Assembly (NCBI GenBank): GCA_963765675.1
Contig: CAVXXK010000001.1
Coordinates: 544,001-608,000 of the forward strand
Origin: an uncultured delta proteobacterium
GTDB lineage: Bacteria; Desulfobacterota; Binatia; Binatales; Binataceae
Length of the DNA stretch: 64,000 nt
Reading direction: 5' to 3'
In this document: positions 4,008-18,928 of the stretch, piece by piece
How positions within the stretch are numbered: position 1 is the first letter of the stretch
Layout: every line of letters begins with the position of its first letter
Position numbers and translations under genes: made by a program
The notes under the pieces: generated by a model
What the model saw: only the letters and a program-made list of their open reading frames with translations
What the model was told of the DNA's origin: nothing
Database searches by the model: none

Positions 4008-7000
4008 TCACGGCTCCTTGCTGGAGGCGGCGTGCGGCGCCCATTTCAGGATTCCTAGATCGGCGACGAAAATCGCGTAAAACGATTTGACCAGGATCAG
4101 CTCGATCACCGTAGCGAGTGCGAGTCCTCCGATCTGCGCGTAGCACAGCGGCTGCCAGAGCGGGCCGCCGTGCAGCGCCAGCGGAAACAGCGCCAGCACA
4201 GTTGCGCCCACGGTCACCATCACCGGCCGCAAGCGCTCGATTCCCGCGTCGAGCAATCCCTGGATCAGCTCCTCACCCATCTCACGGCGCTCTTCGATAA
4301 ACTCGAACAGCACGATTACGTGACTGACGATCACGCCGACGAGACTCGCGATGCCCAAAAACGCCATGAAGCCGAACGGCGCACCCATGATCCAAAGCGC
4401 GGCGACCGCGCCGACCGCGCCATACGGCACCGCCACGAACACCAGCCACGGCTTTACGAGATTGTTGAACTGCACCACCAGCGCGACGAAGATCAGCACC
4501 ACAGAAATCAACAGCACTACCGCCAGTTGGCCAAAGCCCTCGCTCTGCTTGGCCTGCTCGCCGCCGATCTCGAGGCGGTAGCCAGGCGGCAAGTGGCTGG
4601 CGATCTCTTTGAGCTTCGGGGTCGCGATCTTCATGACTTCCGACGGAAGCACGCCGGGAGCCGGATAGGCGACCACGGAGATCGTGCGAAAGTGATCGCG
4701 CCGGACGATCCGCTCGGGCGACAAGCGAAACACGATTGGCGCAACCGCCTGGATCGGAACCCGCCCGTTTCCTTGCGACGCAAAGATGTAAAGACTTCCC
4801 AGGTCTGAAAGCTGGGCGCGCTCCTGCTGGCGAAGGCGCGCGACGATCGGGATGCGCAGGTCACCGCTGATCAGCGTTCCCACCTGCGCTCCGGAAAGGC
4901 CCGCGGCGGCGGAATTGGCGATGTCCTGATTGGTTACACCGGCCAGATTCGCGCGATCGGGATTTATCGGCAGATCGATGACCGGACTCTCGGCCATCCA
5001 GTCAGTGCGGATGCGCCGCGCACCGGGAACCGAGCGCAGCACCGCCTCGGCCTGGTTGGCGATATTCTGAAGCGTCTCGATATCCGCCTGCTCGCGCGCC
5101 GGATCGATATCGGCCTGGCCGAAGATATGCACCTCGATTGGATAGCGCACCGGATTGGTGAGCAGTTGGCACACGTCAACGTATGCGCCGGGAACTTCCT
5201 TCGACAAGAGATTCTGGAGCGGGCCGACAAACTTCGGCATGTCTTCCTTATTTTCGATCTCGAGGATCAACTGCGCGTAATTAGCCTGTGGTGATTCCGG
5301 TGACACCGAAAACCAGAAGCGCGGCCCACCGCCGCCGACGAAGCTGGTGATCGATTTCAGGATCGTGCGCGGATGACCATGCTCGGGATGTTCCTTGCCA
5401 TATTCCGCGGCCGCGTTGCGCACCACTGCCGCGACTTTTTTCGCGGTGGCGTCAGTTTGAGAAATCGCCGCGCCGTTGGGAAGCCATACGTCGATATACG
5501 ACAGGTACTGCACATCCTCGGGAAAGTAGGCGCTGCGCAATTGCTTCGCGATCAGAAACCCCGCGATCAGAAACAGCATCGAGCATGCAACAAACGTCTT
5601 GCGATGCTCCAATGCGTAGTGCCCAATCCGGTAGTACACGCCGGTAGCGCCGTGGCTGCGCCGATACTCGATCGGCGGCAGCGGTTTTCCGGGCCGCATC
5701 AGGTAGTAACCGAGTTGCGGAATAAAGGTCATCGAAATGATCCGCGACGCGACCAGTGCGCAGGTCATCACGATCGGCAGGCTGTAGAGAAAATTCCCGG
5801 TGTCGCCCGAGAGCAACAGAAACGGCAGGTAGGCAACGATATTGGTGATGGTCGAGAACAGGATTGCACGTTCGAGCTTGGTCGGCCCAAGCCACGACGC
5901 GACTTCCGCCGGATGCCCGAGACCCAGATCGTGCTTGATCGCGTCGCCCGCCACCACCGGATCGTCCACCAACAGTCCAAGGGCGATGATCAAGGTCGCG
6001 ATCGACACCTGCTGGAGATCGATGCCGAGCACGTACATCATGCCGAACGTCATCGCGAGCGTGAGCGGAATTGACAGCGCGATCAGCAGCGCCGCGCGCC
6101 AATCCCAGAATCCGATCAGCGCAATGACGACCACCAGCGCGATCGCCTCGTACAGCGCACCGATGAACAGATGCACATTTTCGCGAACCTGGAGCGGCTG
6201 ATCGGAGGTGCGCGCGACTACGAGGTCCTCGGGCAGGCGGGTCTTCAGTCCCGCGATCGCCTTGTCGACTGCCGCGCCGAAGGCGCTTATCTGCTCGCCC
6301 GAGCGCATGAATACCGCGATCGTTACCGCCCGGCCGCGGTTCCAGTGCCCGTCGGCGGTCTTCCAGGTATAGAAATTCAGGAGCCGCGGCGGCGCTTCGT
6401 AACCGCGCGAGATATCCGCCAGATCGCGCAGGTAGAACGGCGATCCGGATTCCGACTTGCCGAGAATCACGTCGCCAATCTCCTGAGCGTCGGTAAATTC
6501 GCCGCTCGGATGCAGCGTCACGTCGGTGCCGGCCGCGTTGATCATCCCGGCCGACTGCGTGATATTTCGCGACGACAGAATCTGCGAAAGTTTGCTTGGC
6601 GTAAACCCGTACGACGCAAGCCGCTCTTGCGAGTAGACCAGGTTGACCCATTCCGGCAAAACGCCAGTGCGCGAGACCTTCTCGACGTCGGGAACCGCTT
6701 CCAGAGCACGCGAGATCAGATCGGTGTAGCGCTCGAGCTCGCGGTACGTGTACTTGTCACCCGCCGAGGCTTCGAGAATCGCCTCGGTCTGCGCCGGATC
6801 CCTGATCTCGACCGGCGGCCACGCGTCGGGATGAAACGCTTCGAACATCGAGGTCCCGACCTGGGAGTTGATATAGGCAGTCGCAGTTTTCACCAGGTCG
6901 GCGCCCGCAGGCTGTGCGGCGTCGAGGCCCGAAAAACCTGATCCGTCGAGCGGGCGAATATCGGTCGCCGCGTGATGCTCCGCCAGATAACGCGACAGCG

Positions 7001-7661
7001 CGTCGCGCACCCGCGTCACCGACTCGGCAGGCATCGTCGGCGGGAAGATCGTCACTAGCGAAATGCGATTGGATTTCGACTCCGGCGCGACGTTCGCGCG
7101 CGCTTTCTCGATCGCGGCGCGAACCTGACGCGCGCGTAGAGCAATCTCGACCTCGTTCACTTTGGGGCTCGCGACGGTCAGCATCAATGCCGCGGTATCG
7201 CCGAAATCGCTCTGGAACTGGATCGGGCCGGCTCCGTCAGGCAGATTGCGGATACTGGCGAGCTTGAGATTGATGTCGTTGAATTGCTTTTCGGTATCGC
7301 CGACGTTTTGAGTGAGCTGGATATAAACGATCGCGAGCCCGTCGAGCGTCAGCGATCGGATTCCGTAGTCGGTCCCGACGCCGGCGGGATGGATGTAGGA
7401 GTTGGTCGCGATCTTCTCCTCCATCTTGCGCGTTACGGTCTGTTCGATTTTCTCGGCGCTGACTCCTGGCCACGGACATATCGCGAGCGCCTGGCGCACT
7501 GGAATATCCGGATCCTTGCGCTTGGGCATGTGGAGGTAGCCGTAAATGCCCCACGCAACCACTGCGGCCAGCAGCACCCACGAGATGGCGCGATTCTCTA
7601 CAAAAAACCGCGCGGTGTTATGGGTCGTGCGGATTATTTCTTCGTCGCTGCGATGTGCCAT
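4008..7661 (-). CDS. RND efflux transporter permease subunit (AcrB/AcrD/AcrF family)
   Basis: 1217 aa; two large periplasmic loops; TM4 GLLVDDPVV; RLRPVMVT motif. Confidence 0.92.
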   Translation of the reverse strand: MAHRSDEEIIRTTHNTARFFVENRAISWVLLAAVVAWGIYGYLHMPKRKDPDIPVRQALAICPWPGVSAEKIEQTVTRKMEEKIATNSYIHPAGVGTDYGIRSLTLDGLAIVYIQLTQNVGDTEKQFNDINLKLASIRNLPDGAGPIQFQSDFGDTAALMLTVASPKVNEVEIALRARQVRAAIEKARANVAPESKSNRISLVTIFPPTMPAESVTRVRDALSRYLAEHHAATDIRPLDGSGFSGLDAAQPAGADLVKTATAYINSQVGTSMFEAFHPDAWPPVEIRDPAQTEAILEASAGDKYTYRELERYTDLISRALEAVPDVEKVSRTGVLPEWVNLVYSQERLASYGFTPSKLSQILSSRNITQSAGMINAAGTDVTLHPSGEFTDAQEIGDVILGKSESGSPFYLRDLADISRGYEAPPRLLNFYTWKTADGHWNRGRAVTIAVFMRSGEQISAFGAAVDKAIAGLKTRLPEDLVVARTSDQPLQVRENVHLFIGALYEAIALVVVIALIGFWDWRAALLIALSIPLTLAMTFGMMYVLGIDLQQVSIATLIIALGLLVDDPVVAGDAIKHDLGLGHPAEVASWLGPTKLERAILFSTITNIVAYLPFLLLSGDTGNFLYSLPIVMTCALVASRIISMTFIPQLGYYLMRPGKPLPPIEYRRSHGATGVYYRIGHYALEHRKTFVACSMLFLIAGFLIAKQLRSAYFPEDVQYLSYIDVWLPNGAAISQTDATAKKVAAVVRNAAAEYGKEHPEHGHPRTILKSITSFVGGGGPRFWFSVSPESPQANYAQLILEIENKEDMPKFVGPLQNLLSKEVPGAYVDVCQLLTNPVRYPIEVHIFGQADIDPAREQADIETLQNIANQAEAVLRSVPGARRIRTDWMAESPVIDLPINPDRANLAGVTNQDIANSAAAGLSGAQVGTLISGDLRIPIVARLRQQERAQLSDLGSLYIFASQGNGRVPIQAVAPIVFRLSPERIVRRDHFRTISVVAYPAPGVLPSEVMKIATPKLKEIASHLPPGYRLEIGGEQAKQSEGFGQLAVVLLISVVLIFVALVVQFNNLVKPWLVFVAVPYGAVGAVAALWIMGAPFGFMAFLGIASLVGVIVSHVIVLFEFIEERREMGEELIQGLLDAGIERLRPVMVTVGATVLALFPLALHGGPLWQPLCYAQIGGLALATVIELILVKSFYAIFVADLGILKWAPHAASSKEP

Positions 7662-8866
7662 TAGGGGATAATCCGGATTTGCTGGCCGTCGGTGACCATG
7701 GTCGCGCCGCGCACGATCACGCGGTCACCAATCGCAACTCCGGAGTCCACCGCGATTTCGTTGCCGACAATATCGCCCAGCCGCACCTTGTGCATCCGCG
7801 CGATCGTTTTGCCGCCCTCTGCGCTGGCGACGAATACGGCATAGCCGCTCGGATCCTCGGGTGGGCGGACCACTGCGTTTATTGGAACCGTCGCCGCGGT
7901 CGCGATTGGCGCGGACGCGTTGTTAGCGAGCTTGAGCGACGCGATCATCCCGACGCGTAAGCGGCCGTCCTTGTTCGGGATCGTGACCTCGACGTCGAAG
8001 GTGCGTGTGTTCTGGTCGGCGCTCTGCGCAATCCGCGTGATCTGCCCTTCGAGCTGCACGCCTGGCAGCGCCTCGGTGCGCAAGGTCTGCACTTGCCCCT
8101 GTTTCAACTGCCCCACTTCTATATCCGAGACTGCGAAGATCGCCTTCATCTCGGTCGTGTCGGCAATCTGAAACGCAACGACGCTCGGGCCGACCAGCGA
8201 ACCGATTTCGATTCCGCGGCTCAGCATCACGGCGTTCATAGGCGAGGTCAGCTTGCAGTAACCGAGATTGATCTGCGCCTGCTTGAGCGAGGCCTCGGAC
8301 TGCTTCACCTGCGCATCGGAAGACCTGTACTGTTGGACGGCATTGTCGTAGTCGCGTTGCGCGATGATCTTTTCCTTGAACAAGGCGCTATTGCGATTGT
8401 AGTCGGCCTTTGCCTTCGCATAGGTCGCCTCCGCATTGACCAGCACCGAGGCGGCCTGATTGACCTGCTGCTGATAGGGTCCGGTCTGAATCGTCGCGAG
8501 CAGTTCGCCGTTTTTTACGGGATCGCCGCCCTGGATATCGCGGGTGCGTCCTCCCGCTCCCGCAACTTGCTTGATCGTCTCGACATAGCCGTTGACCTGA
8601 AATGTCAAGCCAACCTGGCGGTAGGGCTGAAGGTTCGCGGTGTATGCGCCGCGATGGGCCTGCGTAGCCTCTCTGACCGCGCGCACGGTTACCGCAATCG
8701 GCGGCTCGGTGGTGGGGTTCGGGTGATTACCGCATCCGACTCCGCCGGCGATTGCCGCTACAATCAGTAATGCAAGCGAAAGATTGCGTATGTGCAAGTC
8801 GCTCCCTCCCGAATGGCTCCGCGTACGTGCCGAATCCTCCGCCACGCGCCGCCCTTCCTGCCCCAA
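7661..8866 (-). CDS. RND efflux periplasmic adaptor (membrane fusion protein)
   Basis: Lipoprotein-like signal (GVGC); biotinyl-lipoyl-like halves flanking an alpha-hairpin; ADQNTRTFDVEV and LRVGM motifs; start codon uncertain. Confidence 0.9.
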   Translation of the reverse strand: MGQEGRRVAEDSARTRSHSGGSDLHIRNLSLALLIVAAIAGGVGCGNHPNPTTEPPIAVTVRAVREATQAHRGAYTANLQPYRQVGLTFQVNGYVETIKQVAGAGGRTRDIQGGDPVKNGELLATIQTGPYQQQVNQAASVLVNAEATYAKAKADYNRNSALFKEKIIAQRDYDNAVQQYRSSDAQVKQSEASLKQAQINLGYCKLTSPMNAVMLSRGIEIGSLVGPSVVAFQIADTTEMKAIFAVSDIEVGQLKQGQVQTLRTEALPGVQLEGQITRIAQSADQNTRTFDVEVTIPNKDGRLRVGMIASLKLANNASAPIATAATVPINAVVRPPEDPSGYAVFVASAEGGKTIARMHKVRLGDIVGNEIAVDSGVAIGDRVIVRGATMVTDGQQIRIIP

Positions 8867-8913: not shown

Positions 8914-9945
8914 TTACGCATAGATGCGAGAGGTATCGCGAATCCGGGCTTTGATTTCGTCGCGGAGTGTTTTGGGTTCGAGCACCTTGATAAACGGGCT
9001 CATCGCCATGATCCAATTGGCAAGCTCCGCTGTCCCTTTGAGTCTGAGCCGCAAGAGCGTCCGGCCGTCGCGCGCTACCGAAAGCTGTTGAGAAGGGTGA
9101 ATAGTGCGCGCACCAAGGCGAGCGTCCGTTTCCGGACTGAGGCTTTTCAGTACTACCGTCGTCTCGCGATCCTCACTGACGATCCCGAATGTTCCTTGCA
9201 CGAATGCCGCGGGATTGTATGACGCGGGCAGCTGGAATCTTTCGTCAGTGCCGGAATCGTCTTTGATGAATTCCACCGAGCGCATCCGCTCGACGGCCAA
9301 ATAGATAATCCCCGAGCCGCGATGACTGCGGCCCAGTAGATATAGTCCGCCGCGATATTGAACCAGGGTGTACGGATTGAAGTCGTGCTTCCGATCGCTG
9401 CCATCGGTCCGATTCATCGACGCATAGTGGATCCGCAGGCGCTTCTCGTCGAGCAGCGCGCGCATAATCACGTCGATCTGTTCTTCATACGGACGATAAT
9501 CTTTGGGGACGTACTGCACGGTGTAGAACTTGCGATTGAAGTCGCGCAGCCTGAACTGCCACGCTGGCGGCAGGTTGGTCCGCACCCGCTCCCAGATATC
9601 GTCAACGCCCGACTTGAGCACGGTGCCCTCGAGAAATTTCAGCAACGCCAGGCTCGAGTACATCGCTGCCGCCTGATACACGTTCGAGCTCGGCCCTCCC
9701 CGCCGCGCCACCAATCGCAGCTTGCGGCTCGCACCGGCGCCCGCCGTCTCGACCACCATTTGCCCCAGCTTTCCGCGCATCCTCACGAACTCGCGCACGT
9801 AGCGGTCCACCGTGCGTCCACTGACCCCAAGCTCGCGCTTAATTCTCTGGAGCGGCACTCCGAGCGGCTCTTCCGTCAGCATCATCGCGATTCGCGCGTA
9901 ACGGATTCCCGACTCATAGGTTGGTTTTCTTGATTTGACCACCAT
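8914..9945 (-). CDS. WYL-domain transcriptional regulator (wHTH-WYL-WCX; PafB/DriD-like)
   Basis: HTH ELGVSGRTVDRYV; WYL core PYTLVQYRGGLYLLG...LAVERM; WCX WIMAMSPFIKVLEPKTLR; ATG at 9945 preceded by GAAGGAGG. Confidence 0.9.
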   Translation of the reverse strand: MVVKSRKPTYESGIRYARIAMMLTEEPLGVPLQRIKRELGVSGRTVDRYVREFVRMRGKLGQMVVETAGAGASRKLRLVARRGGPSSNVYQAAAMYSSLALLKFLEGTVLKSGVDDIWERVRTNLPPAWQFRLRDFNRKFYTVQYVPKDYRPYEEQIDVIMRALLDEKRLRIHYASMNRTDGSDRKHDFNPYTLVQYRGGLYLLGRSHRGSGIIYLAVERMRSVEFIKDDSGTDERFQLPASYNPAAFVQGTFGIVSEDRETTVVLKSLSPETDARLGARTIHPSQQLSVARDGRTLLRLRLKGTAELANWIMAMSPFIKVLEPKTLRDEIKARIRDTSRIYA

Positions 9946-9970
9946 CGGCGCCTCCTTCAGAGGCATCCGG

Positions 9971-10019
9971 ATTATAGCTGCTCGCTAAGACAACCGCTGT
10001 CTTGTGGAGCAGTTATAAT
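9971..10019. promoter_or_regulatory. Symmetric bidirectional promoter/operator: TGTCTT-N10-TATAAT on both strands
   Basis: ATTATA(9971-9976)-N10-AAGACA(9987-9992)-N5-TGTCTT(9998-10003)-N10-TATAAT(10014-10019), between the divergent WYL gene and recC. Confidence 0.85.
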
Positions 10020-10085
10020 GAGCGTGTTGGACGAGGCAAATCGAAACCCATATCGTCAGCCTTAAGGCACGGAGAGAAACGGGGG

Positions 10086-13000
10086 ATGCTTAGACTTCAC
10101 TACTCGAATCGGCTCGAAGGATTGATCGAGCCGCTCGCACACTCGATCACCGAGCAGCAACGGCGCGATCCGCTGCGGAAGATCTCGATCGTCGTACCGA
10201 GCCGAGCCGTCGAGCAGTTCGTGAAGTACCAGGTCGCCGAGCGTCTGGGAGTCGCTGCCAATCTCAGTTTTCCGTTCTTGCGCGCGCGTCTGACCAATGT
10301 TGTACACAGCGCCGACCCTCGGCTCCGCGTGCTCGATGCGAACGCGCTTCAACTCGTCATCTTCAACACTCTGATGAGTCAGAAAAATCGCGCCGGTTCG
10401 GAGCTCTCGCCCGCCTGGAACTACATTGACGCCGGCGGCAGCCGCGGCACTCCCGAGGCGGAGCTGCGAGCCTTCGAGTTGTCAGGACGGGTGGCAAAGC
10501 TGTTCGAAGAATACTCGATTTCGCGCCGCGCGATGCTCGCGCAGTGGAGTAGCGGCCGCGTGACTGCAGCCGGCACTGCAATCGCCGAAAATGAAAATTG
10601 GCAACAGGCTCTATGGCGAATCATCTTCGCGAGCGGCGCCGCGAATCCTGAATGGACTGGCGACGCGGCTCACGACTGGATGCTGCTGCCGGACGCTTTC
10701 GCGCGAATCGGCGACGCGGCACTGGCCGACGCGATGCGCGACGGACTCCTCCACGTGTTCGGACTCGCGTCGCCGGGCCAGGCTTATGCGGAGATTTTCG
10801 CGCGGCTCGGTAAGCTTGGCGCGCTTTCGATATACGCGCTCAATCCATGCCGGGAATTCTGGGAAGACCTGGATACCTCGCGCCGCTCTGCCCGGACTGA
10901 TTGGATCCATCGCGGAAGCCGGATTGGCGCTGATCTCGACACGAGCGAAGATCCATTCGGCCTCGCCGCCGGCGACAATCGCGCGCTCGAGCTTTGGGGC
11001 CGTCCCGGCCGCGAATATATCCGTCTGCTCAATGAGCTCAGCGATTGCGATTTCGAATCGAACTTTATCGACCAGCCCGATGGCAAAGGCGCGTCGCTTC
11101 TTTCGCGTGTTCAGCAAGATATCCTCGACCGCTCGCGCGGTGCTCAACTGCTGGACGCTCCTTCGACGGCAAGCATCAGCTTTCTGGCGTGTCCCGGAAT
11201 CCAGCGCGAGGTCGAGATTGTCGCGAACGGGATCTGGCGGCTCTTGAAGCAGAGCGCATCCGGAAAGAATCCGCTTCGCTTTCACGAAATCGGCGTGCTG
11301 ATTCCGGACACCGAGTGCGAGGCTTACGCGCCCTACATTGAGGCAGTCTTCGCGCGAATCCACGGCATCCCGGTCGAGATCAGCGGACGCAGCGTTGCGC
11401 GCCAAAGCCGCGTCGCCGAAGCAATCAGCCTGCTGCTCAAGCTCCCGCTCGGCCGGTTTACGCGCGCGGATCTGCTGCGCCTCCTGAGGCATCCTGCGCT
11501 CAGTGGCGGAGACCCTACGCTCGACGTTGAACTGTGGGATACCTGGTGCGAAGAGCTGGGAGTTTTCTTCGGCGCCGATGGGGGCGATCCAGCCGCGACC
11601 TATATTCCGCCCAATCTTTTCAATTGGGACCAGGCGCTCAAGCGACTCGCGCTGGGAGCATTCATGTCGGGCGAACGCAGCGGCGACGATCGTTTGTTCG
11701 AATCAGCCGCAATCGGCGCCTTGATGCCGCTAGAGATCGACGAAAGTGAAATCCCCGCGGCGCAGGTGTTCGTCGGCACCGCGCGCGCTCTGCTTGCCGA
11801 CGCGAACGCGATCAGGTCGGCGCGAATGAGCCTCAGCCGATGGGCGCAACTGCTCACGCGGATGATCGAGCGGTACATCATCGCCGACGAGCCCGAAGAT
11901 CGGCAGATGCGCGACCGATGCCTGGCTGCAATTGACGCGATACGTACAGAGGAAATCGAAAGCCCTGAGGTATCCTACGCCGTGGCGGAAGCGATGGCCT
12001 CGGTGCTGATTGAAGAGCTCGGCGCGCGCCAGGTCCGCTTTGCGGGGCATGGAGTAGCGGCAGGCGCGATGGGCACCCTGCACTCAATTCCTTTTCGCGC
12101 GATCTTCGTTATGGGTCTCGGCGAGTCGTTTTTTCCGGCGCGCGATCCTCGCGATCCGCTCGATCTTCGCGGGATCCGGCGCCACGCCGGCGACTTGAGT
12201 CCGACCGATCGCGATCGCTACACGTTCCTCGAATCGATTCTCGCCGCGCGCGAGCAGATCGCGTTCTCGTATGTCGCACGCGACGCGCATACTGGAGACA
12301 CGCTTGAGCCCTCGACGGTAATTCGCGAACTCCAATTCATTCTCCGCTCGTACCTAAAGGAGGACGCCGTCGATGCTCTGACCCTGACCCATCCCGTCAG
12401 CCGTTATGATCTCGCCTACTTCGGAGACCTTGGCGGCGTCGTATCGTCGCTCAACGGGCTCAGCGTCGATAGCGCTGCGCGCCAAGGCGCGCGAATCACG
12501 GCGTTGCGCGAGAATCTGGACCGTTACACCGATGACGCCGCGCGTCTGGACGCGCGCGAGCTGCTGGCAGCGCTCTCGCCCCAAGCGCGCGAGGCTCTGC
12601 GTCCCGATCTGCGGATTCCGAAGATCGATGGAGCGGCCGAGGTCGCGGAGCGCGACGCCGACTTGTATCTGCCGGTCGCTGCGTTACGCAAATTTCTCGA
12701 GTGTCCTGCGCAGGGCGCCGCGCGTTATGCGCTGGGCATGAGCGAAGACGAAGACGCCGACGAAGATATCGTCGACGAACCGGTCGACATGACCAGGCTC
12801 GACCAGGTGATACTGCTGCGCGAGCTGTTTTGGAAGCTGCCGCCGACCGAGGCCGCCGCCGAATCCGAATACGTGCGCGCGGCCGCGCTCGCGCAGATGA
12901 AGGGACGCGCACCGGCAGGTCCAATCGCCGATACATTGCGCGATCAGGACCTGGGTTTGATCCGGGGCTGGACTAAGTCCGCTGAGAAAGCGAATGCCGG

Positions 13001-13682
13001 CAATTTGTCGAAGTGGAAAGAGTTTCGTATCGGCCGCGCCGACGAGCACGCGTCATTGGCGCAAGAGATTCTGCCCTATCTGGTACTCGAAGTGCCGGTG
13101 CGGACGGCGCCCGGCAACATTATCACGCGGCGAGTCAGGCTCTACGGAAGCGTCGGAGTCTTCTCACCCGGATTCGACGCCGCGTTGCAATGCCTCACGC
13201 GCAAGGACGCCAAGGCCAAACATTTCCTGCCCCTGTTCCTGAACGCGATTGTGCTCAAAGCGGCGGGCGAGCCAGTTGCAAAAAAGTTCAGAGCGATCCT
13301 GGTGAGCGCCGGGGCCGAGAGCGAAAAGCCGCCTCTGTGGATCAGAACGCTGCGCGTGCCAGAACAGAATCAGACGGTCGAGTATCTCACAACACTCGTC
13401 AGTGATCTGCTTTCCGGGCCGCACGATTATTTCCTTCCAGTCGAAGGGGCGGAAGAAGTTTACAAGTTGTCGCGAAAAGGCAGCGGCGCGGAAGAAGCCG
13501 TGTCGGCGCTCGAAGAAATGCGCGATCAGGAACGTGACCGTGGGTTACCCAGCTCCGCGTATGGACCTGTGCGCCGATGGCGCGAACTCGAACTGCCTGG
13601 CGCGCAAGGAGTCTTCGAGCTCGTGAATCGCCGCTTCGGGCCGACCAGGTCGCTGTTCGACGATGAGGACGCGGGCGAATGA
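10086..13682 (+). CDS. recC: exodeoxyribonuclease V subunit gamma
   Basis: N-terminal LHYSNRLEGL; NPCREFWED; LELWGRPGREY; REVEIV; C-terminal inactive nuclease-like LRKFLECP; start taken at ATG 10086. Confidence 0.93.
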   Translation: MLRLHYSNRLEGLIEPLAHSITEQQRRDPLRKISIVVPSRAVEQFVKYQVAERLGVAANLSFPFLRARLTNVVHSADPRLRVLDANALQLVIFNTLMSQKNRAGSELSPAWNYIDAGGSRGTPEAELRAFELSGRVAKLFEEYSISRRAMLAQWSSGRVTAAGTAIAENENWQQALWRIIFASGAANPEWTGDAAHDWMLLPDAFARIGDAALADAMRDGLLHVFGLASPGQAYAEIFARLGKLGALSIYALNPCREFWEDLDTSRRSARTDWIHRGSRIGADLDTSEDPFGLAAGDNRALELWGRPGREYIRLLNELSDCDFESNFIDQPDGKGASLLSRVQQDILDRSRGAQLLDAPSTASISFLACPGIQREVEIVANGIWRLLKQSASGKNPLRFHEIGVLIPDTECEAYAPYIEAVFARIHGIPVEISGRSVARQSRVAEAISLLLKLPLGRFTRADLLRLLRHPALSGGDPTLDVELWDTWCEELGVFFGADGGDPAATYIPPNLFNWDQALKRLALGAFMSGERSGDDRLFESAAIGALMPLEIDESEIPAAQVFVGTARALLADANAIRSARMSLSRWAQLLTRMIERYIIADEPEDRQMRDRCLAAIDAIRTEEIESPEVSYAVAEAMASVLIEELGARQVRFAGHGVAAGAMGTLHSIPFRAIFVMGLGESFFPARDPRDPLDLRGIRRHAGDLSPTDRDRYTFLESILAAREQIAFSYVARDAHTGDTLEPSTVIRELQFILRSYLKEDAVDALTLTHPVSRYDLAYFGDLGGVVSSLNGLSVDSAARQGARITALRENLDRYTDDAARLDARELLAALSPQAREALRPDLRIPKIDGAAEVAERDADLYLPVAALRKFLECPAQGAARYALGMSEDEDADEDIVDEPVDMTRLDQVILLRELFWKLPPTEAAAESEYVRAAALAQMKGRAPAGPIADTLRDQDLGLIRGWTKSAEKANAGNLSKWKEFRIGRADEHASLAQEILPYLVLEVPVRTAPGNIITRRVRLYGSVGVFSPGFDAALQCLTRKDAKAKHFLPLFLNAIVLKAAGEPVAKKFRAILVSAGAESEKPPLWIRTLRVPEQNQTVEYLTTLVSDLLSGPHDYFLPVEGAEEVYKLSRKGSGAEEAVSALEEMRDQERDRGLPSSAYGPVRRWRELELPGAQGVFELVNRRFGPTRSLFDDEDAGE

Positions 13683-16600
13683 ACGGCGCGATATATATCC
13701 GTCCCTCCGTCATCGACAAAATCGGACTCGGCACGCATCGCGTGATCGAGGCCAGTGCCGGCACCGGCAAGACCTTCACGCTCGAGCATCTGATTGTCGA
13801 GTTGCTGATTCGCGGAGAAGCGAAGCTCGATCAAATCCTGGCCGTCACCTTCACTCAGCGCGCGACCGCGGAGCTGCGCGCTCGCGTTCGCGCCGCGATC
13901 GATCGCGCTCTGCGCGCGGCGTATGCAGACGATAAAGCAATCAAATCGGCGTTCCCCGGCATCGACCTTGTTGCGCCGCTCGAGGCGGCGCTGTTTTCTT
14001 TCGAGCGTGCGCCGATTCACACGATTCACAGTTTCTGCCAGCGAGTCCTGACTGAACTCGCATTCGATACTGGCGCGAGGTTCGGGACCGAGGCCGCCGA
14101 TGGACGCGCTTTGTTCCACGAGGCGTTCCGCGCGGTGTTGCGCGAAAAAAGAATAGCTAGCGCCGAATACTCCGAGCCCCTTGAGAAATGGATTAAGGAT
14201 TCGGGCAAGCCGGTTGACGACCTCGAGAAGATGCTCTTCGAGGTGAACAGCAATCATTATGATCCGGAAAATGGCGCAACGGCGGCGTCGATCGAATCTC
14301 GGCTGGCCAACCTGTTCCTGCCGCCGATGCGCGAATGGCTGAGCGCGGAAAAGTTCCGCCGCGGCGTGATCGACTATGACGACATGCTCGAACGTGTTCA
14401 TCAGGCGCTCGAGGACGACACGGACGGCAGGCTCGCTGCGGCGCTGCGCGCGCGGTACTGCTTCGCTCTGATCGACGAGTTCCAGGACACCGACCAAATC
14501 CAGTGGGCAATCTTCCGCAAAATCTTTGTCGACGGAGATACGCAGAGCGCCTTGTATCTGATCGGCGATCCCAAGCAGGCAATCTATTCATTTCGGGGCG
14601 CCGATGTTCACGCTTACATGCGGGCGCGCGACAAAATTGCCGCGCCGCCGAATGATCCGATTGCGCTGACCGAGAATTTTCGCTCGACCGCACCGATGAT
14701 CGCCGCGGTCAACGCGATTTTGGATCAGAACGCGAATCCACCGCTGTTCAACAGCACGATCAAATATCAGAACCCGGTCTTCTGCGGGCGCGAAGATCTG
14801 TGTGCTAAGGCGGGTGGCAAAGAGCTGACACCGATCACGCTGATTACGGCGAAACACGACGCGAAATATAAGGCGGCGGCCCTGAGGCGGATGCTCGCGT
14901 GCCGGATCGCCGCGACGATCAAGGCGATCGTGAATGACCCTGACTCGGCGATCACCGTCACTGACGGCGCGAAGTCCGGACCGGCGGTCACGTACGGAGA
15001 TATTTTTATTCTGACCAACACTAACGCCGAAGGAATCAAACTTGCCGAGTATCTCCGCGCCGAAGGCGTCCCGTATGCATTCTACAAACGCGAAGGATTG
15101 TTCCAGACCGATGAGGCGCGCGATGTTCTCGACATGCTGCGAGCCGTCGCCGCGCCTAACAATCGATCGCATCGCCTGAAGGCGTGGGCGACGCCGTTCT
15201 TCGCCATCCCGATGCGCGAGCTCGCAAAGTTGGATGAGCCGGCACCTTCCGATCCACTGATGGCGCGATTGGCGAAGTGGCACGGGCTCGCGAAGGAGGG
15301 AGATCTCGCGGAGTTGTTCGACTCGCTGCTCGAAGAGAGCGGCCTGGCGGCGCGCCAACTGTTTGGGGCACCAAATCTCCGCGAGCTTACCAACTACGAA
15401 CACCTCTTCGAGTTGATCCTCACTGAATCGCTCAGGGAAGGATGGTCGATCGCGGAAATTATCGATCGTCTCGGCGCTTACGTCGGCGAGTATCGGCTGC
15501 CGTCGGGCGAGGATCCTAATCTCATGCGGCTCGAAAGCGAACGCGCGGCGGTCCAGATCATGACGATTCACAAAGCCAAAGGGCTCGAAGCGCGAGTCGT
15601 TTTTCTCTTCGGCGGTTTCTTCGCGAACAACAGTCCGCGTCCGGTGAAGATTTATCATGACCAGGAAAGCGTTCGCCGCCTCGCTATCGGCAGCGCCGCG
15701 CAGCTCATGGAACGCGGGCCGATCAAGCAAGACGAGGCCGAAGAGGATCAGCGGCTGCTGTACGTAGCGATCACGCGCGCACGCGCAAAACTTTATCTCC
15801 CTTATTTTCCAACCAGACCCGGAAAACTTGATCTGTCCGGAAGATACAAGCAGCTGAATGATCGACTGCGCGCCATGGACGCGGCCGGACAGCTTGCAGC
15901 GCCTCTGTTCGAGACCGTTGCGCTGGAAATGGAGCCACGCGAGATCAGCGCGAACGCAAATCCGATCAGCGGATGGCGGCCTCCGGCAAGCCTGCTCGCG
16001 GACCCGAGCGCCGTAAAACTCGAAAGCGAGCTCGCGACCCTAGCACACAGATGCGCCGCGCTTTCGACAGTATCGTACACGTCGTTAAATCGCCGCGCCG
16101 TACCGGAACTCGATCTGAGCGAATACAAGGAACCTATCGCCGAGGCTCCAGGGACCGCATCGGAGCCCGCTGGAGGCGCCGCGGCCGGAATCTTTCTGCA
16201 CGAGACGATCGAAAAGCTCGATCTGAAAGCTCTGGCCGTCGCACGCGATCTTGCTTCATGGAGCGCGCTCGACGAGGTTCGCGAGCTGTTCGATTCCGCA
16301 CTGCGGCGTCATCAGGTGCCTGAACGCGAGCGCTGGATGATCCGCGGCCCGGAGCTCGTCTTCAACACCCTGCGATCGCCAATCGCGGCTGGAGCCACGA
16401 ACATCCCCGCACTGGCCGGATGCGAGTCCTCGCGCGAGATGGAGTTCACGTTTCCGATACCCGAGGCCGGGCACGGCCTGCTCGCTTCCGCGCGGGCGAA
16501 TGACGCCGCGCGATGGCGAATCGAGCGGGGCGTGTATGTTGGATTCGTGGATTTCGTTTTCCGCCACGAAGATCGCGTCTACTTCGCCGACTGGAAGAGC

Positions 16601-18928
16601 GACCTGCTCGACTCGTACGAACCCGACTCGGTCGCGCAGCACGCGCGGAATAATTACAGTCTGCAGGCAAAAATCTACACCATCGGCGTTACGCGCCTGC
16701 TTGGCATTCACACCGAGGCGGAGTACGAGGCCGGGTTCGGCGGCTTGCTCTACCTGTTTATTCGGGGCATCACGCCCCGCGGCGGCGGAAATCGTGGTGT
16801 CTACTTTTATCGTCCGCCTTGGGCCGAAGTGGTGCGCGCAGAAGGCGAGCTGATGCGGCCGTTTCGAAATGGTGGGCAACCGATGAAGCCCCTTTATTCT
16901 CTGCTCGGAATGGACACGGCCACTCAGCGCAGCGCCCGTGCGGAGCGCGCCGCTACGCAGTTCGAAACCGACATGGCGCGTCTTCGCGCGTCGGTCGCCG
17001 AACTCAATCTCGATCCCGGCACGGTGCATCTGGCGGCGGAAATCGCAGCGCTCGAGCCCGCCTTCGAGCTGGACGACAGCGCGCGGTTCGCGCTGATTGT
17101 GCTGATTGTCCTGTCGCTGGCCGCCGTCGCTGAGGGCAACACGCGATTTCCCGTGAGCGGCGATGAATCGAAACAACCGCTGGAGCGGATGCTTTCCGCC
17201 CTGATGGCGCCGCCTTTCGACGATTTCACGCGCGAGCGGGTCGAGCAGAAAATCGCGGAGATTCTCGCCGCTGATAGCGCGCCTGCGGTAATCGGACGAA
17301 GTCCCGACTCGCGCCGTCCGCTGCTTTATCTGAAGCCGTATCTTTACCACGAGCGAATCTACCGCGCCGAGCAAAGACTTGCCGAACGCCTGGCGGCGTT
17401 GGTGGACATCGATGGCGAGCCAAACATGCCGGCGATCGCAAAGTCACTTGCGGATGTGGTTGCTCGTCCGGCGATGATCGCCGGCACCGCAGCGGTTCTT
17501 TCTGACGAACAACGCCGGGCGGTCGGAATCGGCGCGAGTTCGCGGCTTGCGATAATTTCTGGCGGCCCGGGAACTGGCAAGACTTCGATAATCGCGGCGA
17601 TCCTGCGGGTGCTGGTGCGCGTTGGGATTGATCCCGCGGCCGTCGCACTGGCCGCTCCAACCGGGAAGGCCGCCTACCGGATGAGTGAGTCGATCCGCAG
17701 CACGATCGGATCGATCGAAAATCCGGCTCCAGAAGATTCCACGCTCGCCGCCGCGATTCCTGCTGCGTCCACGATTCATCGCTTGCTCGGGTTTTCGAGC
17801 ACACGAAGATCTTTTATTCATCATCGCGGCAATCCGCTCGACGCGTCGGTCGTAATCGTCGATGAGGCGTCGATGCTCGATCTGACGTTGATGGATCATT
17901 TGACCGGGGCGCTTCGGCCGCAGGCGCGCCTGGTGATTGTCGGTGACGCCGATCAGTTGCCGTCGGTTGCCGCGGGCGCGGTGCTGCGCGATCTGATGCC
18001 GGCAGCGGAACCGGCCGCATCCGCCGCTATGGCGGGAGTAAGCGCAACGCTCAGCAAGAACTATCGCGCGAGGGCCGAGGACACGGGCGGAGCGGCGATC
18101 GCAATGGCGGCGCGGCAAATCAACGAGGGGCGCGCGGATCTGATCTCGGCCGCCGACAGTCCGGTAGTCAGGAGGGCGACTGCAGCCGAGATCGCGTTTT
18201 CCGGCGTCGAGCTCGTCACCGGCGCGTCGGAGTCACTGCCGGAATTTCTGTCGTTATTCGCGCGGAAACAAATCGAGTCCGATGAGTACGCTGCGATGGC
18301 GCAGGAAAATTATACGTTCGAAGACGGTGCGTTCAGCGCCGAGGACGCGGCGACAATAGCGCGGATGCTCGCGCATCTGGCGCGAGCCAGGATCCTTTGC
18401 GTGACACGGATTGGACGTTGCGGCGCCGACGCGATCAACGCGCGGATGCATCGCGCTGCGCCGGGCCGCAGCATTCCGCCCGAGCGCGGCGCGATGATCG
18501 CGGGCGAGCCGGTGATTGTTATGCGCAACGACTACGATCACATGCTGTTCAACGGCGATCAGGGCGTGCTGGTGAACCTTGCCGAGCGCGGTGGACGCCG
18601 CTCGCTCGCGGCAGTGTTCACGCGAGAGACGGGCCTTGCCGCGTTTCGAATCGAAATGCTGTCGGACGCGATCGATCTGTGCTACGCGATGACGGTGCAT
18701 AAGGCGCAAGGCTCGGAGTTCGATTGCGTCGCGCTGATTCTGCCCGAGCGCGACATGCCGCTGCTCTCGCGCGAGACGATCTACACGGCAGTCAGCCGCA
18801 GCCGGCGATCATGCGTGATCTTTGGCGACAAGGATCTGCTCGAACAAGCCGTGGCGCGGCGTAGCGAACGGTTCTCCGGACTCGCGCAGGCGATCGAGCG
18901 CTATCGTGCCGGTAATACCGGCGGCTGA
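13679..18928 (+). CDS. recB: RecB helicase-nuclease (aa 1-1068) read in frame with RecD helicase (from ATG 16883): apparent RecB-RecD fusion
   Basis: RecB: EASAGTGKT, LIDEFQDTD, GDPKQAIYSFRGAD, MTIHKAKGLE, nuclease VDFVF..FADWKS..YSLQAKIY. RecD: GGPGTGKT, AAPTGKAA, TIHRLLG, VDEASM, GDADQLPSV, TVHKAQGSEF. Confidence 0.9.
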   Translation: MNGAIYIRPSVIDKIGLGTHRVIEASAGTGKTFTLEHLIVELLIRGEAKLDQILAVTFTQRATAELRARVRAAIDRALRAAYADDKAIKSAFPGIDLVAPLEAALFSFERAPIHTIHSFCQRVLTELAFDTGARFGTEAADGRALFHEAFRAVLREKRIASAEYSEPLEKWIKDSGKPVDDLEKMLFEVNSNHYDPENGATAASIESRLANLFLPPMREWLSAEKFRRGVIDYDDMLERVHQALEDDTDGRLAAALRARYCFALIDEFQDTDQIQWAIFRKIFVDGDTQSALYLIGDPKQAIYSFRGADVHAYMRARDKIAAPPNDPIALTENFRSTAPMIAAVNAILDQNANPPLFNSTIKYQNPVFCGREDLCAKAGGKELTPITLITAKHDAKYKAAALRRMLACRIAATIKAIVNDPDSAITVTDGAKSGPAVTYGDIFILTNTNAEGIKLAEYLRAEGVPYAFYKREGLFQTDEARDVLDMLRAVAAPNNRSHRLKAWATPFFAIPMRELAKLDEPAPSDPLMARLAKWHGLAKEGDLAELFDSLLEESGLAARQLFGAPNLRELTNYEHLFELILTESLREGWSIAEIIDRLGAYVGEYRLPSGEDPNLMRLESERAAVQIMTIHKAKGLEARVVFLFGGFFANNSPRPVKIYHDQESVRRLAIGSAAQLMERGPIKQDEAEEDQRLLYVAITRARAKLYLPYFPTRPGKLDLSGRYKQLNDRLRAMDAAGQLAAPLFETVALEMEPREISANANPISGWRPPASLLADPSAVKLESELATLAHRCAALSTVSYTSLNRRAVPELDLSEYKEPIAEAPGTASEPAGGAAAGIFLHETIEKLDLKALAVARDLASWSALDEVRELFDSALRRHQVPERERWMIRGPELVFNTLRSPIAAGATNIPALAGCESSREMEFTFPIPEAGHGLLASARANDAARWRIERGVYVGFVDFVFRHEDRVYFADWKSDLLDSYEPDSVAQHARNNYSLQAKIYTIGVTRLLGIHTEAEYEAGFGGLLYLFIRGITPRGGGNRGVYFYRPPWAEVVRAEGELMRPFRNGGQPMKPLYSLLGMDTATQRSARAERAATQFETDMARLRASVAELNLDPGTVHLAAEIAALEPAFELDDSARFALIVLIVLSLAAVAEGNTRFPVSGDESKQPLERMLSALMAPPFDDFTRERVEQKIAEILAADSAPAVIGRSPDSRRPLLYLKPYLYHERIYRAEQRLAERLAALVDIDGEPNMPAIAKSLADVVARPAMIAGTAAVLSDEQRRAVGIGASSRLAIISGGPGTGKTSIIAAILRVLVRVGIDPAAVALAAPTGKAAYRMSESIRSTIGSIENPAPEDSTLAAAIPAASTIHRLLGFSSTRRSFIHHRGNPLDASVVIVDEASMLDLTLMDHLTGALRPQARLVIVGDADQLPSVAAGAVLRDLMPAAEPAASAAMAGVSATLSKNYRARAEDTGGAAIAMAARQINEGRADLISAADSPVVRRATAAEIAFSGVELVTGASESLPEFLSLFARKQIESDEYAAMAQENYTFEDGAFSAEDAATIARMLAHLARARILCVTRIGRCGADAINARMHRAAPGRSIPPERGAMIAGEPVIVMRNDYDHMLFNGDQGVLVNLAERGGRRSLAAVFTRETGLAAFRIEMLSDAIDLCYAMTVHKAQGSEFDCVALILPERDMPLLSRETIYTAVSRSRRSCVIFGDKDLLEQAVARRSERFSGLAQAIERYRAGNTGG

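Follow-up and report, generated by a model that had tools for sequence, protein, structure and literature searches.

A predicted mirror-image promoter element between a DriD-related WYL regulator gene and recC-recBD in an uncultured Binataceae-like bacterium

Described WYL switches and the regulator at this locus

The kind of switch considered here has already been described in other bacteria, and the locus presented below is probably a further example. The closest described system is DriD of Caulobacter crescentus (PDB 8tp8, 9pfq, 9pfv), a single-chain wHTH-3HB-WYL-WCX protein that is a homodimer. The DriD box is given as ATACGAC(N7)GTCGTAT and the crystallised site as CGACA-N5-TGTCG, in each half-site of which R37 and R41 recognise the conserved bases G2 and C4 (PMC10853764). 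The DriD residues that contact single-stranded DNA (ssDNA) are defined in PMC9186387. As reported in PMC13004042, sigma region 4 lies on the opposite face of the DNA from DriD and activation proceeds via alpha-CTD and beta. The same report describes the driD/CCNA_03891 promoter as bidirectional, yet activated only away from driD. A G at -14 is stated to be conserved at DriD promoters in the DriD preprint (PMC12340889).

SiwR of Mycobacterium smegmatis is reported as a WYL activator that works as a homodimer and whose regulon is local, consisting of adjacent genes. The palindrome it uses is imperfect and is located between -35 and -10, the -26 region is required for induction, and two HTH arginines (R38/R42) are needed for binding (PMC10693628). 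DdaA of the Moraxellaceae is also described as a homodimeric WYL activator, with the box CGWCA-N5-TGWCG; in basal lineages, where LexA is functional as well, its reported targets are few, recC and ftsH being two of them (PMC12392091). In the case of PafBC, the published motif is tGTCgg(N10)tA(N3)T without a -35 element, and R46 and R50 of PafB read the GTC triplet (PMC8635444). The PafB HTH is placed on -23 to -28 and the PafC HTH on sigma region 4 (PMC8635444, PMC11804915). CapW and BrxR are ssDNA-sensing WYL repressor dimers that carry an RWHVR motif and whose palindrome is part of a bidirectional promoter that also serves their own gene (PMC11662680). In the literature library searched, no paper mentions both Binatota and WYL.

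The window analyzed here is a 64,000-nucleotide stretch of an uncultured delta proteobacterium (GCA_963765675.1, contig CAVXXK010000001.1, positions 544,001 to 608,000). It contains a WYL regulator gene between an RND efflux pair and the recC and recB-recD genes (Table 1). The regulator scored above the Pfam cut-offs for WYL (46.7 bits) and WCX (45.1 bits), while its HTH_11 score of 17.2 bits was below the cut-off of 25. Its best solved relatives by sequence (phmmer) were DriD (8tp8/9pfq, E 3e-6) and PafBC (6sj9, E 2.5e-3); CapW and BrxR were not among the phmmer matches at E 0.01 or better. An AlphaFold model of moderate confidence (pLDDT 74, pTM 0.47) was built from 24 homologues and searched with Foldseek. 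The best match was DriD, aligned along its whole length at E 7.5e-17; PafBC followed at 3e-13, and CapW/BrxR ranked below both at about 1e-7 (1.3e-7 or weaker). Alignments to the DriD chains spanned 343-349 columns with E values of 7.5e-17 to 1.9e-14 and an identity of about 18-21%. Judged by its sequence and its modelled fold, the regulator is closest to DriD.

R44 and R48 of the regulator align with R37 and R41 of DriD; among the 24 homologues, R44 was kept in at least 90% and R48 was invariant. Y174, R185 and Y202 match the ssDNA-contacting Y168, R176 and Y192 of DriD, and DriD R178 is replaced by His187. The remaining DriD contact residues K202, R204, W206 and R207 had no counterpart in the phmmer alignment to the regulator. 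Given this partial match, ssDNA is only a putative ligand of the regulator. The RWHVR motif of CapW/BrxR is absent, and the strand of the WYL motif reads GGLYLLG, which is conserved in the family alignment. The regulator is a single 343-aa gene without a PafC-like partner among its neighbours. Close relatives of it, at up to 97% identity, come from MAGs labelled Candidatus Binataceae or uncultured delta proteobacterium, which shows that the host is no actinobacterium. The genome carries lexA and recA.

The mirror element and its conservation

The region between the WYL gene and recC contains an inverted repeat at 9971-10019, in which two 22-nt arms (9971-9992 and 9998-10019) pair at 18 of 22 positions (82% complementary) across a 5-nt gap. 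A first-pass annotation of this DNA had described these 49 bases as carrying TGTCTT-N10-TATAAT on both strands. Rereading of the window returned the sequence at those coordinates as described, with exactly 10 nt between the two motifs and a perfect TATAAT on each side. Counted over both strands of the 4.52-Mb genome (61.5% G+C in the largest contig), TGTCTT-N10-TATAAT occurs three times, twice within this element, and TATAAT occurs 326 times. AAGACA-N5-TGTCTT is unique to this site in the genome.

The genome has 43 inverted repeats of the element's format (arms of 22 nt around a 5-nt gap, with 18 or more of the 22 positions paired), compared to 0-3 in each of ten mononucleotide shuffles. The majority of these 43 are unrelated, GC-rich repeats from hairpin families. 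A REP-like family of near-identical GC-rich hairpins of about 49 nt was observed outside the window (in this genome, G000, for example at C1:182348, C1:339365, C1:889648 and C3:221579). A second hairpin family is scattered over the genome (for example at C1:1422485 and C8:1657).

A consensus promoter scan of positions 9000-11000 found no sigma-70-type -35/-10 pair, and the hexamers located 16-18 nt 5' of either TATAAT match TTGACA at no more than two of six positions. As had been claimed, the start predicted from the leftward -10 box (about 9964) falls just 5' of GAAGGAGG, which reads from 9957 to 9950 ahead of the likely ATG at 9945. The AGGAGG of this ribosome-binding site is kept in L001-L007, seven of the regulator loci compared below. 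The symmetry of the spacers (CTGCTC/GAGCAG) is present at this site and is not conserved in relatives, so it was not treated as functional.

The flanks of the core operator extend to AAGACA-N5-TGTCTT (9987-10003), giving a half-site of A-G-A-C, and the centre at 9995 corresponds to about -31 of both predicted promoters. By its sequence, the mirror element most likely serves to dock the presumably damage-sensing WYL regulator encoded next to it, at the -35 position of two predicted back-to-back promoters.

Table 1. Coordinates of features in the window and, where a contig is named, elsewhere in the same genome (G000).
Feature	Position	Strand	Remark
RND efflux pair, other neighbour of the regulator	4008-8866	-	named by reading translations
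Gene of the 343-aa regulator (class A WYL protein; wHTH-linker-WYL-WCX)	8914-9945	-	likely start ATG 9945
Ribosome-binding site GAAGGAGG of the WYL gene	9950-9957	-	4 nt 5' of ATG at 9945
TATAAT, -10 box of the promoter facing left into the WYL gene, reading ATTATA on the forward strand	9971-9976	-	predicted start ~9964
AAGACA	9987-9992
Core operator GACAACCGCTGTC	9989-10001	.	one mismatch from palindrome GACAAC-N-GTTGTC
TGTCTT	9998-10003
TATAAT, -10 box of P1, the promoter facing right into recC	10014-10019	+	predicted start ~10026
Second conserved element TTGGAC (10027-10032)-N18-TATCGT (10051-10056)	10027-10056	+	downstream of the P1 -10
recC, 1198 aa from ATG 10086	10086-13682	+	Pfam Exonuc_V_gamma E 4.9e-54
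recB-recD fusion, 1749 aa, one open frame	13679-18928	+	4-nt overlap of its start with the recC stop
Perfect GACAACCGTTGTC with TATACT at N12, inside tilS	G000:C3:42384-42414 (42402)	-	~380 nt upstream of ftsH
70-aa Cys-rich protein gene, CxxC...CxC...CPxC	G000:C6:511357-511569		behind intergenic box at G000:C6:511320

Conservation of the element was assessed in 30 loci with regulator homologues; of the 61 related genomes searched, 29 gave a match. The constant part across loci is a 13-bp palindrome, GACAAC-N-GTTGTC (in the form GACAAC-N-GYTGTC). Allowing up to two mismatches, it was present within 300 nt upstream of the WYL homologue in 23 of the 30 loci (21 of 28 when the unpublished genomes G010 and G027 are left aside). 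Palindromes of this quality number 78 in a whole genome of 4.5 Mb, so chance does not explain the co-occurrence of box and regulator. The earlier claim that the motif is tied to the adjacent WYL gene is borne out by these counts. On this conservation of its sequence, the box is very likely the site of the adjacent WYL regulator.

The divergently oriented neighbour is recC in 12 of the 30 loci. Towards recC, these 12 have a T-A-N3-T hexamer at N12 from TGTC in nine cases and at N11 in three, one of the latter (L008) coming from unpublished G010. On the regulator side, a -10 box lies 12 nt from TGTC only in L001-L006, the closest relatives of the window. The corresponding distance is 13 nt in L008 and 14 nt in L007, L009 and L011. 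No T-A-N3-T hexamer was found on the regulator side of L010 and L012, and a looser hexamer rule recovered GACCAT at N12 in L012. The mirror arrangement therefore holds in only six of the 12 recC-linked loci (L001-L006) and is a feature of one species group. Judged from these spacings, the constant feature is the box-N12-(-10) arrangement towards the target, not the mirror symmetry.

The cassette GACARCNGYTGTC-N12-KAYNNT gave 26 matches in 8 of 37 related genomes, while a reversed control pattern gave none in the 37. These matches comprised 14 at regulator/recC loci, five at the small protein described below, three inside tilS, three at a site that is intragenic in G000, and one further match. 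A G is found at -14 in 20 of 23 N12 promoters. Three DriD promoter oligos (PMC13004042) were aligned by hand, and this placed TGTC or TGGC 12 nt before a C-A-A-N3 hexamer, with a G two bases upstream. If this alignment is right, DriD, PafBC and the promoter described here would share one geometry. Two distant WYL homologues, L016 and L017 (44-45% identity), have a related box with three mismatches in L016 and one in L017. In both, the box and a -10-like hexamer at N12 face away from the regulator and towards an ORF of about 400 aa, an AAA+ ATPase by eye from its translation. This arrangement suggests that the same cassette has been reused for other targets.

The recC product matched TIGR01450 at E 5.4e-101 (339 bits, below the curated cut-off of 583). 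The fusion downstream of it matched TIGR00609 recB over residues 202-1053 (E 2.4e-162; 543 bits, below the curated cut-off of 696) and TIGR01447 recD over residues 1112-1737 (E 1.8e-111, above the cut-off). The second conserved element, TTGGAC-N18-TATCGT, stays beside recC in L007, L009 and L011 despite the 65-420 extra bases that separate the palindrome there. It is probably a separate sigma-70-type promoter of recC (P2), probably constitutive, to which a WYL-dependent P1 would add an inducible layer. The conserved element TATCGTCAG of the leader also occurs upstream of lexA and was considered as a LexA box. It was rejected on its 35 occurrences, mostly in coding sequence, and is read as a -10-like element. 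The recC leader had no Rfam match, and its fold was no better than that of shuffles (z +1.15), with no stable structure. In L007 and L011, two members of the genus, 300-500 extra bases with a possible small ORF lie between the palindrome promoter and recC; these possible ORFs are unlike the Cys-rich protein described below.

These features can be compared to the described systems one by one. Like DriD, the regulator is a single-chain protein of wHTH-WYL-WCX type with both reading arginines kept, and its box is a pseudo-palindrome with the conserved G and C (CGAC-N7-GTCG in DriD; GAC-N7-GTC here). In both cases the box covers the -35 position of promoters that lack a -35 element, at a fixed distance from the -10, with N12 and the G at -14 in common according to the hand alignment. 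In both cases it also lies in a bidirectional promoter shared with the regulator's own gene. Unlike DriD, the outer base of the half-site is A rather than C, and the centre of the box is GC-rich rather than AT-rich. The DriD box lies about 10-17 nt from the driD start codon and driD is not activated, whereas here a -10 box, at the mirror position, and a ribosome-binding site intervene. The targets also differ, being recC-recBD and a small Cys-rich protein, and the host is Binataceae-like and has LexA.

The N5 core format is shared with DdaA (AGACA-N5-TGTCT here, CGWCA-N5-TGWCG there). However, the DdaA box as published has C as its outer base and lies about 50 bp upstream of start sites, compared to a centre at about -31 here, and the DdaA regulon is reported to be large in Acinetobacter. 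The PafBC-like geometry that had been claimed for the element holds in its spacing, as TGTCTT-N10-TATAAT equals the published tGTCgg(N10)tA(N3)T (PMC8635444); however, the site here is a palindrome with both halves conserved, also at one-way promoters. The spacing of half-site to -10 is identical, a -35 element is lacking in both, and PafBC is described as an ssDNA-sensing activator of DNA repair genes. In contrast to the regulator here, PafBC is reported to be a two-chain heterodimer that uses a half-site only and does not attach to DNA unless polymerase is present. It controls about 150 genes including recA by the published account, whereas recA has no box here. SiwR, to which the locus is likened by its published description, is actinobacterial, with dinB-like targets and a 19-bp palindrome of other sequence (GGA at -26). 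CapW and BrxR, as described, are repressors beside anti-phage systems and are more distant in fold and in sequence.

A probable second target and the size of the regulon

The genome was scanned for the box, at up to one mismatch, followed by an x-A-N3-T hexamer at N12. Four matches were returned: both promoters at 9971-10019, one inside tilS, and one intergenic at G000:C6:511320, ahead of a gene for a 70-aa Cys-rich protein. This protein had no match to a Pfam family; 8 hypothetical clusters matched it. It is present in 8 of 41 related genomes. In all eight, its promoter has the box at up to one mismatch and then an x-A-N3-T hexamer at exactly 12 nt, and the spacer sequences are unrelated among four genera. 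The ATG lies 6-8 nt past the hexamer in six of the eight genomes, as expected of a leaderless mRNA, and from this spacing the gene is probably leaderless. At these one-way promoters, the distal half-site reads GACAAC in seven genomes and GTCAAC in one. In one of the eight, G011 (93% complete), the search for the regulator gave no match at E 1e-20 or better.

A MAG of the Acidiferrales (L038) has the order regulator, perfect box, N12, TATGAT, 68-aa Cys-rich homologue, 6 nt, recC. The regulator of L038 is 50% identical to that of the window, and the small-protein homologue (L038:1168-1374, minus strand) shares 57% identity. Read from its sequence, the L038 cassette has the same geometry in another phylum (Acidobacteriota), beside the same genes. 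More tentatively, the Cys-rich protein might be induced by damage and act with RecBCD as a partner or modulator not described before.

Genome-wide, GACAACNGTTGTC was found 2, 9 and 67 times at 0, 1 and 2 mismatches, compared to 0, 8 and 143 times in shuffles. The box is thus not enriched over the genome, which points to a tiny regulon. A global regulon was rejected on these counts, which are no better than shuffles, and on the lack of a box at recA and lexA. The first-pass annotation had suggested looking for the motif upstream of recA; the best match upstream of recA, and likewise of lexA, has four mismatches in 12 positions. TGTC-N12-TANNNT occurs 83 times in the genome, with no enrichment by a rough estimate from base composition. 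Exact GACA-N5-TGTC occurs at 24 sites, and an x-A-N3-T hexamer at N12 accompanies it in only three loci. Gene positions in these scans were taken from a crude ORF and codon-usage caller of our own.

The perfect copy inside tilS was rejected as a supported target, although DdaA is reported to control ftsH. It drifts like coding sequence, being perfect in three of nine genomes, with one mismatch in four and two mismatches in two (one of the nine rows is from an unpublished genome). A box that recurs in G001, G002 and G009 was also rejected, as its two-mismatch copy at G000:C1:746686 is antisense inside a coding frame. The intergenic boxes at G000:C1:1728772 and C3:468860 have no -10 at N12 and are compatible with chance.

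Activation and the competing readings

The palindrome is likely to be the box of a homodimeric WYL activator of the DriD, SiwR and DdaA type, driving recC-recBD and possibly, in this species group only, the regulator's own gene. A homodimer of the regulator would bind GACAAC-N-GYTGTC, which is built into promoters with a good -10 and no -35. A box centre at about -31 would put the promoter-proximal TGTC at -28 to -25, the position of the PafBC -26 element and, by the hand alignment, of the DriD box. On receiving its signal, most likely ssDNA bound by the WYL domain, the dimer would help the RNA polymerase holoenzyme onto the -10-only promoter in the manner of DriD, SiwR and DdaA. The targets in this genome would be recC-recBD, by way of P1, and the leaderless gene of the 70-aa Cys-rich protein. 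RecBCD itself makes ssDNA, and its control by an ssDNA sensor would therefore form a feed-forward loop.

In the species group with a second -10 at the mirror position, the same dimer site could also drive the regulator gene, which would amount to positive autoregulation. Spacing drifts on the regulator side (N13-14 in 4 of 12 loci and no T-A-N3-T hexamer in 2 of 12), and activation of the regulator's own gene may be weaker than that of recC. The perfect TATAAT might support some activator-independent transcription. A more tentative extension is a 'Janus' promoter, in which one dyad-symmetric WYL site at -31 serves two mirror-image, -10-only promoters, with about 62 bp between their starts. Triggered by ssDNA, one activator would in that case fire either its own gene or recC-recBD, with one polymerase at a time. 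Each promoter's -10 falls at -55 to -50 relative to the other and might also serve alpha-CTD as an AT-rich docking site. If the Janus arrangement is true, the regulator would exert a positive feedback on itself, which is unreported for DriD, DdaA or PafBC.

Activation or repression had been left open by the first-pass annotation. The palindrome could be an operator of the CapW/BrxR type, at which a WYL dimer between the two -10 boxes blocks both promoters until ssDNA releases it; this is unlikely, although it has more in its favour than the other alternatives. An ssDNA-sensing WYL repressor in a bidirectional promoter is known in CapW (PMC11662680), and the operator lies within the polymerase footprint at either promoter, where two perfect TATAAT boxes could give a basal transcription that needs restraint. 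In the distant homologues L014 and L026, moreover, the box lies 26-38 nt from the regulator's own ATG with no -10 between. However, spacers that have diverged in sequence still keep the -10 at exactly 12 nt, and a steric block needs no such spacing. The promoters have no -35 that would make them active alone, and the box overlaps neither a -10 box nor a predicted start site. The regulator itself also resembles these repressors less, with a CapW/BrxR fold match at about 1e-7 compared to 7.5e-17 for DriD, none by sequence at E 0.01, and GGLYLLG in place of RWHVR. Activation is favoured over repression on three grounds: the spacing is strict, a -35 is missing, and the nearest relatives are activators.

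Less probable still is a strict PafBC-type sigma adaptation, in which one HTH reads the proximal TGTC at -26 and the other contacts sigma region 4. The identity of motif and spacing with tGTCgg(N10)tA(N3)T and the lack of a -35 fit this mode, and PafBC is the second-best solved relative of the regulator. For SiwR, a homodimer with a palindrome, the -26 region is needed, and a related mechanism is suggested in the study describing it (PMC10693628). Against it, conservation of the distal half-site at one-way promoters equals that of the proximal one, which argues that both HTHs bind DNA. DriD, with the same box format and placement, is reported to leave sigma region 4 on the opposite face and to use alpha-CTD and beta. 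Two points favour the DriD/SiwR mode: one-way promoters retain both half-sites, and the regulator gene is single, without a PafC-like partner. Sigma adaptation outside Actinobacteria, as first suggested for this element, is thus not the best reading of a single gene with a two-half-site palindrome, a DriD/DdaA box format already known outside Actinobacteria and, in DriD, alpha-CTD and beta contacts instead.

A chance palindrome, or promoter elements without a regulator such as those of an alternative sigma factor, would account for boxes of up to one mismatch at chance frequency (11 observed, about 8 in shuffles) and for a perfect copy that drifts inside tilS, but is very improbable given a box beside WYL homologues in 23 of 30 loci, 26 cassette matches against none for the reversed control, and conservation in another phylum beside the same genes.

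A homodimeric WYL activator at this element would extend the DNA-damage switch of the DriD, DdaA, SiwR and PafBC type to an uncultured Binataceae-like lineage that keeps LexA. The regulon of the switch there would be minimal, consisting of RecBCD and one small zinc-ribbon-like protein. The locus adds sequence evidence that a TGTC at -28 to -25, 12 nt from the -10, may be common to homodimeric and heterodimeric WYL activators. As a natural mirror promoter, it would also offer a compact substrate for asking by what means RNA polymerase is given a direction by a WYL dimer that is itself symmetric.
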